The position numbers and the translations under genes were made by a program. This document shows positions 55,905-58,240 of a stretch of 64,000 nt of DNA, in pieces (the stretch's first letter is position 1; each line of letters starts with the position of its first letter). Below the pieces are notes generated by a model that searched no databases, was not told where the DNA came from, and saw only the letters and a program-made list of their open reading frames with translations. The DNA lies in contig SUUQ01000003.1 in the NCBI GenBank assembly GCA_015062445.1, positions 15,623 through 79,622 of the forward strand, read 5' to 3'. Origin of the DNA: Alphaproteobacteria bacterium (GTDB lineage: Bacteria; Pseudomonadota; Alphaproteobacteria; Rs-D84).

Positions 55905-55978
55905 TGGGGCATAGTTTAATGGTAGAACTCCGGACTCTGACTCCGTCAGTGTTGGTTCGAATCCAGCTGCCCCAACCA
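55905..55978 (+). tRNA. tRNA-Gln (anticodon CUG)
   Basis: Manual fold: U1-A72 acceptor TGGGGCA/TGCCCCA, anticodon loop CTCTGAC, T arm GTTGG-TTCGAAT-CCAGC, encoded CCA. Resembles E. coli tRNA-Gln. Confidence 0.85.
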
Positions 55979-55984
55979 AGATAG

Positions 55985-56013
55985 ACAAACCCGCCAGTAA
56001 AGGCGGGTTTTTG
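55985..56013 (+). terminator. tRNA-Gln terminator
   Basis: AAACCCGCCagtaaaGGCGGGTTTTT. Confidence 0.55.
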
Positions 56014-56029
56014 TTTGGTTCCTAATATT

Positions 56030-56095
56030 TTCACCGAGTTCGAAAGTTGAATATAAAAAAGTGGTGAAAAATCACCACTTTCGAACTATTTCTTC
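56030..56095. repeat. Double-hairpin element, copy 0 (GTTCGAAAG..GTGGTGAaaaaTCACCAC..CTTTCGAAC)
   Basis: Nested inverted repeats. The same element recurs at about 56810-56873 and 57400-57465. Confidence 0.5.
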
Positions 56096-56664
56096 CATTC
56101 TGATTTTAATTTACCAAAATATAATTTATCTCGTATTGAACCATTAGGCCATTTAGCATCTTGGCGAATAACACCTTCCAAAGTATACCCATTATGTTCT
56201 GCTATGGTCTTAGAAGCAATGTTTTTAGCATCACAATGCAATTGTATTTTATGACACCAATCTTGTTCAAATGCCATTTTTTCTATTTTGGGCATCAGTT
56301 TATTTATTATTCCTTTGCCTCTGGCAGATTTTCTTAACCAATAACCAATCTCAACCTTGCCAGATTTTTGCATAATGTTAGAGAACCCGATTTCACCCAA
56401 TAATTTATTATCTTTGAATATCCCAAACAGCATTGTTCTTGTGCCAAGATTGCGTTTGTAATAACTTACCAAAACATGTTCCGGGGATTCAAATAAACCG
56501 TCTGGCATCCAGAAAATCATATTCTTTTCATCTTGGGATACAATTTTAAAAATCTCTTTTGCATATTCCATAGTTGCAGGAATAATCATAAGAACGTATT
56601 CGCCGACTTTGATTTTTTTATTTCTGAATGCTTCAAATTCCATATTAAATCCTTGTATCACCAT
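56086..56664 (-). CDS. GNAT-family N-acetyltransferase (RimJ/RimL-like)
   Basis: 192 aa with a GNAT-like core (..KLLGEIGFSNIMQKSGKVEIGYWLRKSARGKGI..). Single cargo gene of the first repeat-bounded unit. Confidence 0.6.
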   Translation of the reverse strand: MVIQGFNMEFEAFRNKKIKVGEYVLMIIPATMEYAKEIFKIVSQDEKNMIFWMPDGLFESPEHVLVSYYKRNLGTRTMLFGIFKDNKLLGEIGFSNIMQKSGKVEIGYWLRKSARGKGIINKLMPKIEKMAFEQDWCHKIQLHCDAKNIASKTIAEHNGYTLEGVIRQDAKWPNGSIRDKLYFGKLKSEWKK

Positions 56665-56694
56665 AATTATACCATAAATTCGTGTTTAAATCTA

Positions 56695-56873
56695 TTTATC
56701 TTTTGTCCAATTTCCGCCAATTCAGTTCGCAAATTGCACACATATCCCAACCAAGATTGACAAGCCCGCCGATAAAGGCGGGGTTTCTTTTGGTTTCTAA
56801 TGTTTATAGCGAGTTCGAATGTTGAAAATAAAAAAGTGGTGAAAAATCACCACTTTCGAACTATTTTGCAATA
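56695..56873. repeat. Repeat unit R1: element arm + degenerate tRNA-Gln 3'-end copy + terminator + double hairpin
   Basis: agttcgcaaattgcacacatatcccaaccaagattgacaagcccgccgataaaggcgggg... aligns to the tRNA-Gln 3' end ggttcgaatccagctgccccaaccaagatagacaaacccgcc... Confidence 0.55.
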
Positions 56874-56876
56874 TAA

Positions 56877-57236
56877 TTATCTACAACCAACAAAAGCCCA
56901 ATTGTCGCCACCTTCGATAGGTTCTGCAATCATGGTGCGGATTGTAAAGTTTTCTTTGCATGTTCCTGGGTCGTCAAATGAGACTTCTGCATAAACATGT
57001 TCTTTGTCTGCGTATAATTCAGACAAATTCAAATGCCCACCAGCACGAAATTTGCCGTTTGGTTGCAACTGTTTTACTTGCTGTGCCCATTCTTGTTCTG
57101 CTGGACATTTATAAACCAGATGAAATTCTGTTGTTTCTATTCTTTCGCAACCTTCAAAAATAGAATCATATTTGCTGTAATCCTGGGCACATGCAGTTAA
57201 TGTGATGATTGGCAAAATAAAAAATAATTTTTTCAT
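56877..57236 (-). CDS. Small lipoprotein, hypothetical
   Basis: Signal MKKLFFILPIITLTAC with lipobox LTAC. Single cargo gene of the second unit. Confidence 0.5.
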   Translation of the reverse strand: MKKLFFILPIITLTACAQDYSKYDSIFEGCERIETTEFHLVYKCPAEQEWAQQVKQLQPNGKFRAGGHLNLSELYADKEHVYAEVSFDDPGTCKENFTIRTMIAEPIEGGDNWAFVGCR

Positions 57237-57289
57237 ACAATCTCCTTTGTTGTGTTTGTTGTTATAATATCATAAACTTGTTTCTAAAA

Positions 57290-57465
57290 TCTATTATTTC
57301 TTGCCCGATTTCCACTAGTTCAGTTCGCGAATTGCACAGATAGCGCAACCAAGATAGACAAGCCCGCCGATAAAGGCGGGGTTTCTTTTTGTTTCTAATG
57401 TTTATAGCGAGTTCGAAAGGTTGAAAATAAAAAAGTGGCAAAAAATCGCCACCTTCAAATTTTTT
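57290..57465. repeat. Repeat unit R2 (same architecture as R1, with compensatory changes in the inner hairpin)
   Basis: cagttcgcgaattgcacagatagcgcaaccaagatagacaagcccgccgataaaggcgggg... followed by gtggcaaaaaatcgccac. Confidence 0.55.
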
Positions 57466-58108
57466 TTATTTACTACGACTTGGGATAGCGCAAAAACATC
57501 GTATATGTTCTGCGTATTTTACGTTGAAACCGTTTTTTGTAAATGTATCCATCCACCAATTTTGTGGTTTAATAAGACGGGTTTTATTACAAGTGGTCAA
57601 TATGTCACCGTTGGCTGCCGCTGCTGCAACATCTTCGGTAGTATTATGTATCGCACAAATCATTTTGCTGTTGCGAAACTTATCAAGCACATTTGGCAAT
57701 TCTTGTTCAGAAAAATAAGTAAGTGTGCCATTACAAAAAACGATATCCGCCATAATTGGTTCGCAATCAAGAATAGACTTAATTTGTATTTTGCCACTGG
57801 TGGAACAATTCTTCTAAATTACTGGGTTTATATGGGTAATTTTTTATATCTATGCCACGTGCATCCATACCCAACCTTTGTGCCATCATAACAATAACAC
57901 CGATGGCTGCACCGCAATCAAAAAAGGTTTTGGGTTTTTGACCAAACTTATTTACAAATTCCGTCATCAACATTTTAGGTGGTATTGAAAACATTGTCCA
58001 AGGTCCATCTGTATCACGATAGCTATAGTTCAAGTACGGATATTTTTGATAATAATAATGCATTATTTTGTTCGCTTTTATCTGGTTATATGACGATGGT
58101 ATAAACAA
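57466..58108 (-). pseudogene. Class I SAM-dependent methyltransferase split by a frameshift (ORFs 57779-58108 and 57466-57753)
   Basis: The N-terminal fragment carries motif I FDCGAAIGVIV and post-I ARGIDIK. The C-terminal fragment (DIVFCNGTLTYF..) is in another frame after a stop at 57779-57781. Confidence 0.45.
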
Positions 58109-58149
58109 TGTTATTGTTTGTCAATATTTGAATATTCTTTTGACTTGTT

Positions 58150-58240
58150 AATTTCTTTCCCGATTTCCAATAATTCGGTTCGCAGATTGCATGACGGGCA
58201 CAACCATAGTTTCAAATGCCCTTTGTGGGCATTTTTATTT
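58150..58240. repeat. Repeat unit R3: divergent copy of the tRNA-3'-like segment with a different terminator
   Basis: ggttcgcagattgcatgacgggcacaaccatagtttcaaatgccctttgtgggcattttt. Confidence 0.45.

Follow-up and report, generated by a model that had tools for sequence, protein, structure and literature searches.

At the 3' end of one conserved gene, serine recombinases insert elements such as the staphylococcal cassette chromosome (SCC) SCCmec, the pseudo-SCC (psi-SCC) and the Enterococcus cassette chromosome (ECC). SCC-type islands contain tandem elements with short repeats between them, and some of these, having no recombinase, are believed to be mobilized in trans. Cis-mobilizable elements (CIMEs) are derived from integrative and conjugative elements (ICEs), which use tyrosine or DDE enzymes; they are kilobases long and have kept their attachment (att) sites and lost the integrase. 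The SSV1-type integrases are tyrosine recombinases of archaeal viruses and carry attP inside the int gene. Among the tycheposons of Prochlorococcus, newcomers push older elements into the island and partial tRNAs are scattered through it, and tyrosine recombinases are found in 910 of 937 (bioRxiv 10.1101/2020.12.28.424599). Of 297 serine-integrase islands, Mageeney et al. (2020; PMC7192596) found 14 to lie in t(m)RNA genes, and they described this use as previously unreported. Literature on serine-recombinase cassette arrays or on islands of Enterousia was searched and nothing relevant was found. Here we investigate a tandem array of repeat units and single genes that lies downstream of tRNA-Gln(CUG) in a window of 64,000 nucleotides, the whole stretch analysed, from an Alphaproteobacteria bacterium (assembly GCA_015062445.1, contig SUUQ01000003.1, positions 15,623 to 79,622).

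The tRNA-Gln(CUG) gene is at 55905-55978 on the plus strand (ARAGORN; Rfam tRNA, 64.5 bits), and its 3' end is GTTCGAATCCAGCTGCCCCAACCA. Our reading, to which we give a probability of roughly 0.7, is that the array behind it consists of three recombinase-less mini integrative elements, and that these come from a family of large serine recombinases (LSRs) that targets the CCA end of this tRNA gene. The repeat unit is about 166 nt long and was divided in the analysis into two modules, ARM and DOWN. From the tRNA outward, the window contains DOWN1, a GNAT acetyltransferase gene and ARM1; DOWN2, a lipoprotein-like gene and ARM2; and DOWN3, a broken methyltransferase-like gene and ARM3, after which a different sequence begins.

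In the 109 nt of the DOWN module, AGATAGACAA and a plus-strand terminator are followed by a spacer and by the inverted repeat GTTCGAAAG...CTTTCGAAC. Its copies are on the plus strand at 55979-56087, 56754-56862 and 57352-57461, recovered by MAFFT alignment and the repeat finder and seen also by nhmmer profile and terminator scan. The ARM module is about 57 nt long with CAACCA at its end, and conservation extends some 40 nt further left. ARM1 (56670-56753, core 56698-56753), ARM2 (57265-57351, core 57296-57351) and ARM3 (58114-58206, core about 58150-58206) read on the minus strand as WLGYVCNLRTELAEIGQKINRFKHEFMV, WLRYLCNSRTELVEIGQEIIDFRNKFMIL and WLCPSCNLRTELLEIGKEINKSKEYSNIDKQ, each closed by a stop codon. 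The junctions of tRNA with DOWN, of ARM with DOWN and of the last ARM with the native flank all meet at CAACCA(A).

The units are not a product of chance similarity. A repeat finder returned a 181-nt family in three copies and a 56-nt ARM family in three copies, and two words of the units are confined to them within the 64 kb: a 24-mer from the inner hairpin, for which 0 matches are expected by chance, and the 17-mer CCAACCAAGATAGACAA, for which 0.25 are expected. The terminator scan found 18 terminator-like hairpins (a hairpin and a T run) between 55600 and 58600, against 2.4 expected. The initial annotation, made from the sequence alone, had described repeat units downstream of tRNA-Gln, and these were recovered both by the repeat finder and by MAFFT alignment of the four stretches. 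Of its four units, three stand at about 166 nt each, and the fourth is truncated to an arm and the CAACCA core; this last does not share the terminator of the others, since the sequence at 58211-58399 is another terminator together with the tRNA's native flank, as had been half-noted. The arm had been put at about 30 nt and is actually about 57-96 nt long. Each unit had also been taken to carry a degenerate copy of the tRNA end, but the likeness is limited to GTTCG and CCCAACCA, with an offset of 5 nt between them in the MAFFT alignment, and an attP half-site is the better description. The single minus-strand gene described for each interval is there in all three: GNAT, a 119-aa lipoprotein-like product and a frameshifted methyltransferase-like one.

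Where do the two modules come from? In the related tRNA-Gln loci L009, L090 and L111 (L-numbers denote the loci compared), a minus-strand gene of 501-503 aa directly follows the tRNA. Its protein contains the Pfam domains Resolvase, Recombinase and Zn_ribbon_recom and is thus an LSR; the same arrangement is found in L125, L126 and L128. The last 55 or so codons of the intact LSR gene cross a longer DOWN of 132 nt and stop inside the tRNA (...NMNGCQS-WLGQLDSNQH, then a stop). A profile made from the short DOWN copies only aligns end to end with these 132 nt of the LSR 3' end (E 1.6e-8 to 7e-7). The arms of the inverted repeat match codons for SSKV and LLSNC in the intact LSR genes, which also have the terminator hairpin embedded in their coding sequence, and 55949-56071 on the minus strand of the window gives a weak protein match to recombinase residues 474-501.

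The ARM likewise has the marks of a coding sequence. Read on the minus strand from TGGTTG, every copy encodes the peptide WL(C/G)Y(L/V)CN(S/L)R(A/T)EL.EIGQEI...K.KLNL.NLH followed by a stop, and the copies have many synonymous differences (GAA/GAG, TTG/TTA/CTA, ATT/ATC and GGA/GGG, for example). Where codons have a single difference, 38% are synonymous in the peptide frame, compared with 24% in the other two minus-strand frames. This pattern points to ARM having once been a protein's end. An LSR gene in L086, now decayed, continues in frame into an ARM. A complete element is present in L126/L127, with the tRNA, the LSR with the long DOWN, about 7 kb of cargo including a HigB-like toxin, and a P arm that encodes WLTIINELRTTYYEDIMN... 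and meets the native flank at CAACCA. One LSR with a matching tail still in place, WLGIVDDLRTVYYADIMN..., is P0014 (P0001-P0120 denote the best 120 homologues of the L009 recombinase), and 24 of 31 bases are common to ARM1 of the window and its P arm, which is also given as the P arm of L129. Judged by these comparisons of sequence, the module of arm and hairpin is a relic of the 3' end of an LSR gene, and ARM in particular is a predicted relic of the recombinase's alternative, pre-integration C-terminal tail.

The same alternation of tails is seen in the wider recombinase clade, defined as the 1605 homologues of the L009 LSR at E <= 1e-30. Tails were classed in the best 120 of these 1605. In 58 of the 120, the conserved tryptophan is followed by a tRNA-antisense tail such as WLGDLDSNQD or WRTRRDSNPRPL; another 28 stop within six residues of this tryptophan; and in 21 the tail is long and bears the motif W-L-x-x-(L/V)-D-x-(L/F)-R-T, the class that ARM fits. 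In the long tails and in ARM, CGAAC is 5 nt further from TGG than in the tRNA-type tails. In the left half-sites, GTTCG starts at a distance of 24 nt ahead of the CCA end in the tRNA and of 29 nt in ARM. Rutherford et al. in 2013 reportedly placed the outer recognition motif of serine integrases about 5 bp further from the centre in attP than in attB. Across the clade, the attachment site seems to lie inside the recombinase gene and integration seems to exchange the C-terminus.

The far end of the array also has the features of an insertion. ARM3 is joined at CAACCA to a sequence, here called X, that flanks the tRNA itself in genomes without an array. In the window X is at 58211-58399 (plus strand) and contains the tRNA's original terminator (58214-58234) and a conserved structured stretch. 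In most loci that lack the modules, the tRNA is followed by this terminator and the conserved stretch of about 150 nt, and of the 105 loci whose downstream sequence is long enough, 46 have X immediately after the tRNA. The presence of X after the last ARM implies that all of the DNA from the CCA of the tRNA to 58206 was inserted.

The array is one of many. The last 30 nt of the tRNA-Gln recur as an identical 30-mer at 119 loci in related genomes. Every one of these is from an uncultured gut alphaproteobacterium that carries the label Candidatus Enterousia, 'Rickettsiales' or Alphaproteobacteria; the Ca. Enterousia clade has genomes of under 1 Mb (PMC12306168). Iterated nhmmer profiles of ARM and DOWN over 120 loci, the window included, found the modules in 48, or 47 besides the window, in arrays of 1-7 units with varying cargo. 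The modules are always downstream of tRNA-Gln and on its strand, except for 4 DOWN-like matches on the opposite strand. The 45 cassettes that run from a DOWN to an ARM have a spacer of 354-1862 nt (median 693 nt), and in 40 of them it holds a single gene. Cassette genes point in both directions (28 plus, 18 minus), and their products include methyltransferases, an RNase T-like exonuclease, a P-loop kinase, HIT and HD proteins, ADP-ribosyltransferase, D-Ala-D-Ala peptidase, GNATs and small lipoproteins. LSR-bearing and LSR-less units share arrays in L086 and L126. Searches of viral, metagenome and genome collections with exact arm patterns gave no match, the patterns being too strict for an arm that varies. 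The initial annotation's suggestion of serial site-specific accretion at the tRNA-Gln 3' end has thus been borne out, by an outer ARM that meets the native flank at CAACCA and by modules in 47 further loci.

We propose the following mechanism. In this LSR family the recombinase gene would span its own attP site, so that integration would replace its 3' codons: the last 30-40 codons (the P arm, ARM) would be swapped for about 10 tRNA-antisense codons (WLGQLDSNQH and a stop). The detached tail, ARM, would stay at the far end of the element, and the stretch of gene that precedes the crossover (the P' arm, DOWN) would land against the tRNA and give it a new terminator. The tRNA's 3' end would then be the left half-site of attB, with ARM as the left half-site of attP and DOWN as the P' arm. 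On this scheme the tRNA-DOWN junction would be attL-like, the internal ARM-DOWN junctions attP-like, and the junction of the last ARM with the native flank attR-like. Newcomers would enter at the tRNA-side junction and shift older elements outward, and the three cassettes of the window would retain about 166 nt around the crossover and one cargo gene each. The crossover probably occurs in or next to CAACCA and can be placed no more finely than about -6..+4 around the CCA end, since AGAT is a frequent start of native flanks as well as the start of DOWN. Since the window has no LSR and relatives have one in the same position, the cassettes of the window can only be non-autonomous derivatives. 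They would have been inserted by an LSR acting in trans, with a tRNA-DOWN junction that may be reusable as attB.

Does such movement go on as a regular traffic? A wider version of the proposal would have an LSR insert and excise single-gene circles in trans at tRNA-Gln, as a serine counterpart of the integron, with attB regenerated and with attP in the gene throughout the clade. Regeneration of attB is proposed because the P' arm resembles the native flank. We regard this wider version as doubtful, though worth stating. We infer both the present-day mobility of the window's array and the enzyme that would drive it.

Several observations count against the derivation from LSR elements and are best considered together. 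The 64-kb window contains no serine recombinase gene. Canonical serine integrases recombine attP with attB only, so the internal attP-like junctions require the reuse of attL as attB or another route. For the right half-site, no obvious dyad partner or motif matching GTTCG was found. The link from ARM to the long tails rests on the motif, the L086 fusion and the 24 of 31 bases shared with L129, and a hidden Markov model of the ARM peptide scores none of the long tails of the 120 LSR proteins. An exhaustive HMMER search of 1.84 billion representative proteins with the DOWN and ARM frames of the window found no LSR that ends in a short DOWN and an ARM tail, and matched only 23 short open reading frames (ORFs) called across such junctions; a word-indexed search with the ARM peptide had no match either. 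The array is 99.98-100% identical in five contigs of other samples, all with the same GNAT gene, and no excision variants were seen among them. The strain is present in samples JGI 3300024270, 3300024272 and 3300023371 and ENA ERZ27248306 and ERZ27248370. Finally, exchanged blocks show a pair of break points at each junction, a pattern more in keeping with homologous exchange than with one crossover. A search of viral contigs with the LSR gave one relative, 41% identical, which was not informative.

The exchange of cassettes between genomes is clear. The same cargo families recur at different positions in the arrays and beside different neighbours. Between L062 and L078, cassette family c61 shows an identity of 96.8% across 741 nt, compared with 75-81% for the adjacent cassettes and the tRNA flank, and c61 and c109 are in opposite order in these two loci. 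Family c36 is 92-95% identical among three genomes in which the flanking hydrolase gene is at 65%, and c126 is the only block that can be aligned between L107 and L117. Cassette identity above that of the flanks indicates that single cassettes have moved between species recently. The exchanged blocks contain the inverted repeat, the gene and part of ARM, and exclude the 50-nt terminator part of DOWN. Within the window, the frameshifted cassette is the outermost one, which is faintly consistent with the entry of new units beside the tRNA.

Alternatively, the LSR scars could be old, and the array could have been built and reshuffled solely by homologous recombination of incoming DNA or sister arrays through the ARM and inverted-repeat modules, with no site-specific enzyme at work on the mini-cassettes. 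The break points of exchanged blocks are inside conserved modules and differ between cases, as such a history would have them: the c61 block begins at the inverted repeat's left edge and ends at CAACCA, and the c126 block runs from the inverted repeat and stops 12 nt into ARM. The lipoprotein gene is a mosaic, no cognate LSR with a DOWN and ARM tail is in the databases, and the array is invariant in five samples. Homologous recombination does not, however, account well for 45 uniform cassettes, each a DOWN, one gene and an ARM, whose outer junctions are exactly at CAACCA as site-specific insertion would leave them. The anchors available to it, of 10-60 nt at 75-90% identity, are poor substrates, and LSR-bearing elements are present in the same arrays (L086, L126). 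We therefore consider homologous recombination unlikely as the sole builder of the array, and prefer insertion of LSR-derived elements.

A part in the array could also be played by a tyrosine integrase. Under this alternative the array would be made of tandem islets left at the tRNA-Gln 3' end by accretion of CIMEs or ICEs or in the manner of tycheposons, and the units would be attL and attR sites. Such an island does occupy the same tRNA-Gln elsewhere: in L052 (2426-7862) and L103 there is a tyrosine-integrase island whose flanks repeat, in direct orientation, at least 30 bp from the tRNA 3' end, so that this tRNA is targeted by at least two recombinase families. In addition, X closes in an exact copy of 15-19 nt of the tRNA end, as tyrosine systems leave, and the window has a tyrosine integrase of its own (37313-38332). 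That gene, however, adjoins tRNA-Gly within a prophage. Tyrosine systems usually leave a long exact repeat, and the overlap of ARM with the tRNA consists only of GTTCG and CAACCA; ARM and DOWN appear instead as relics of a serine recombinase gene. No tyrosine integrase is beside any ARM-type cassette in the 120 loci, which contain three integrase homologues, none of them adjoining such a cassette. We judge a tyrosine origin very unlikely. The initial annotation had stated that no integrase is nearby, which is true of serine recombinases over the whole 64 kb but overlooks the tyrosine integrase of the prophage, 17.5 kb away; in a Pfam scan of the window ORFs this phage-type gene beside tRNA-Gly was the sole integrase.

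The hairpins of the unit allow two further explanations to be weighed. The first hairpin of DOWN, CCCGCC...GGCGGG followed by a T run, is a plus-strand terminator brought by the element for the tRNA, at 55987-56010 in DOWN1, 56765-56782 in DOWN2 and 57363-57380 in DOWN3 (terminator scan). Its alleles pair in different registers, and in other DOWN copies unrelated GC-rich hairpins occupy the same place, which indicates that the terminator function is kept and the sequence is not. The inner hairpin of the inverted repeat, at 56082-56057, 56857-56832 and 57456-57431, is scanned as a minus-strand terminator. Over 47 cassettes it tracks the strand of the cargo, with a mean of -8.4 kcal/mol for minus-strand cargo and -2.2 for plus-strand cargo. 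Because its strength follows cargo orientation, the inner hairpin is identified as the intrinsic terminator of the minus-strand cargo gene. The compensatory change that had been reported for the third copy is real, with GTGGTGA/TCACCAC in place of GTGGC/GCCAC.

The outer inverted repeat GTTCGAAAG...CTTTCGAAC (56036-56090, 56811-56865 and 57409-57463; the core of copy 1 is 56038-56086) has a different behaviour. It is nearly invariant across more than 40 non-coding copies. In a covariation test of the outer stem over 28 copies, double-sided change was seen in 1 of 10 pairs, with a covariation term of -0.14. A stem that is almost invariant and does not covary gives no evidence for an RNA structure. 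Each arm contains GTTCGAA, a word of the tRNA T-loop, and from end to end the two arms cover about 53 bp, the size of an attP; for these two reasons the outer repeat is possibly a second binding site of the recombinase. As the true crossover of intact elements the repeat was rejected, because the L126 element meets the native flank at CAACCA and because shared cassette blocks take in the whole repeat and not half of it.

Could the unit instead be a functional RNA module, a tRNA-derived small RNA or a cis-regulatory leader that was duplicated along with the genes? A strong plus-strand terminator follows each arm, so a short transcript is conceivable, and the hairpins are stable. Against this, Rfam knows no such family: run on the window and seven loci, it returned only the tRNA and a sub-threshold match to sRNA-Xcc1. 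In other copies, too, the terminator hairpin is swapped for unrelated GC-rich ones, the inner hairpin follows cargo orientation as a terminator does, and the arm varies as codons do and not in base-paired columns. An RNA module is extremely improbable as an explanation. The suggestion that the conserved hairpin is a recombination site or a regulatory RNA is not supported either, given an inner hairpin that follows minus-strand cargo and an outer stem that never covaries.

The sub-threshold match itself is at 55643-55721 on the minus strand (29 bits, where the gathering score is 53; E 0.11). sRNA-Xcc1 is a small RNA associated with integrons. The match was treated as chance because it is over two predicted terminators, between the gene for a 316-aa protein and the tRNA promoter.

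An integron-like platform would make the hairpin a folded, attC-like site for an IntI-type enzyme, with attI beside the tRNA. It would explain the one gene per cassette of 0.6-0.9 kb, the imperfect palindromes repeated between genes and a cargo of typical kinds (GNAT, small enzymes, toxin-type proteins). It is contradicted on the features that define an integron. No IntI is encoded in the window or in the 120 loci. The palindrome has the invariant arms GTTCGAAAG and CTTTCGAAC, not RYYYAAC...GTTRRRY, shows no covariation and lies inside the coding sequence of intact LSR genes, and the cargo is found in both orientations with its own terminators and promoter-like sequences. We give the integron explanation next to no credence, and the attC reading of the unit offered earlier falls for the same reasons: no IntI, no attC core sites, mixed orientation (28 plus, 18 minus) and cargo with signals of its own.

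The first cargo gene encodes a GNAT acetyltransferase (56086-56664, minus strand; Pfam Acetyltransf_3, E 6.9e-16). Its true start is likely the ATG at 56643, which has TGGTATAAT before it, a promoter read by eye. The second (56877-57236, minus strand) is an ORF for a lipoprotein-like protein of 119 aa in family c26, the mosaic gene mentioned above, which holds cassette position 1 in L118, L030, L058 and L077. The third (57472-58065, minus strand) is methyltransferase-like and belongs to family c33. It has one frameshift near 57801-57803: in tblastn, aa 1-87 are in one frame and aa 88-197 in another, with 84-87% identity to the intact homologue of 198 aa in L086, and the family is unbroken in L038, L075 and L086. 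The product matched no Pfam family, and the tentative label 'methyltransferase-like' was given on visual inspection, from the motif FFDCGAAIGV. Promoters and terminators of their own seem to be present for the cargo genes; a promoter scan flagged the upstream region of the third cassette only, and the promoters of other cargo genes were read by eye.

X deserves a closer description. It is about 150-190 nt long, opens with a terminator and contains an invariant TGGTTCGACAATGAGTA; its hairpins covary, with double-sided changes in 11 of 21 predicted pairs. In most genomes it closes in a 15-19-nt copy of the tRNA-Gln 3' end. A profile of X has 86 matches in 60 loci, where it is found after the tRNA, after ARMs and in tandem (as in L060 4745-5760, L105 and L064). 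No Rfam family matched it. X may be a gene-less mini-element or a small RNA. A third type of flank follows the tRNA in L030, L031, L080, L034, L039, L087 and others, with a terminator and then GGGGCAGCTGGATCGGTCAGAG.... It is about 190 nt long, opens with an inverted copy of the tRNA 3' end, and is 95% identical between species whose housekeeping genes are at 75%. Among the close relatives compared for the presence or absence of units, L030, L031 and L080 have the tRNA flank in common and yet are different species.

The surroundings of the array were also noted. Upstream of tRNA-Gln are genes for proteins of 1608 aa (49871-54697, minus strand) and 316 aa (54676-55626, minus strand), neither with a Pfam family, and downstream of the array is an autotransporter gene (58517-61888, plus strand). 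Relatives keep the neighbourhood (CBAH hydrolase, DUF5662, autotransporter), with the tRNA sometimes inverted relative to its neighbours (L125, L128). The probable prophage is integrated at tRNA-Gly(GCC) (38466-38542, minus strand) and would cover about 10000-38542 of the window. It contains the tyrosine integrase at 37313-38332, RecT (32947-33756) and a YqaJ-like exonuclease (33740-34672), along with an extended series of small genes on the minus strand.

If the wider version of the proposal is correct, tRNA-Gln would be an open-ended platform for the capture of cassettes, and the LSR would have different C-terminal tails in the free and the integrated state, which could help to set directionality. 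An LSR clade that targets tRNA 3' ends and has its attachment site inside the recombinase gene would be the origin of an otherwise puzzling repeat. Genomes of under 1 Mb (PMC12306168) keep one hot spot for the stacking and interspecies exchange of single accessory genes, among them acetyltransferases, methyltransferases, nucleases, ADP-ribosyltransferases and cell-wall peptidases. The outcome is integron-like and the enzymology different. Should the recombinase act in trans on a 166-nt site that regenerates, this would be a natural template for ordered, repeated insertion at one tRNA.

How does the locus compare with the systems already described? By mechanism, its closest relatives would be the SCC-type composite islands, and by genome architecture the tandem tRNA islands and the tycheposons. 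As in SCC, tandem elements sit at the 3' end of one gene (in 48 of 120 loci) and some have no recombinase. Unlike in SCC, the target is a tRNA gene and not rlmH, the cassettes are of one gene and 0.6-0.9 kb against 5-60 kb, and the repeat is the 3' end of the recombinase gene itself; the recombinase is probably of a different clade from Ccr. With the tandem tRNA islands (Islander/TIGER, PMC7192596) and the tycheposons, the locus shares a tRNA hot spot in a streamlined genome, newcomers that displace older elements, and degenerate remnants and partial att repeats spread through the island. Those systems, however, are overwhelmingly driven by tyrosine enzymes and leave long partial-tRNA repeats, whereas the scars here come from a serine recombinase gene and the units are of single genes. 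The marks of an Islander-type island, a tyrosine integrase in the array and an exact distal tRNA fragment, are absent, the distal repeat being GTTCG...CCCAACCA only.

The likeness to integrons is in organization: ordered one-gene cassettes at a fixed site, reshuffled between genomes and with similar kinds of cargo. The locus differs in having no IntI, attI or attC, and in att scars of the double-strand type in place of folded single-strand sites. Integron cassettes are mostly promoterless and co-oriented, and those found here are in both orientations, with promoter-like sequence and with terminators on the minus-strand genes. As in SSV1, the integrase reading frame spans attP, so integration into the tRNA alters the gene product; but in SSV1 the gene is split into large N and C parts, and here the last 30-40 codons would be exchanged and the gene would stay whole. 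Like CIMEs, the cassettes are att-flanked elements without an integrase, in tandem with autonomous relatives. Unlike CIMEs, they form a set of at least 45 single-gene units with a uniform junction of 166 nt.

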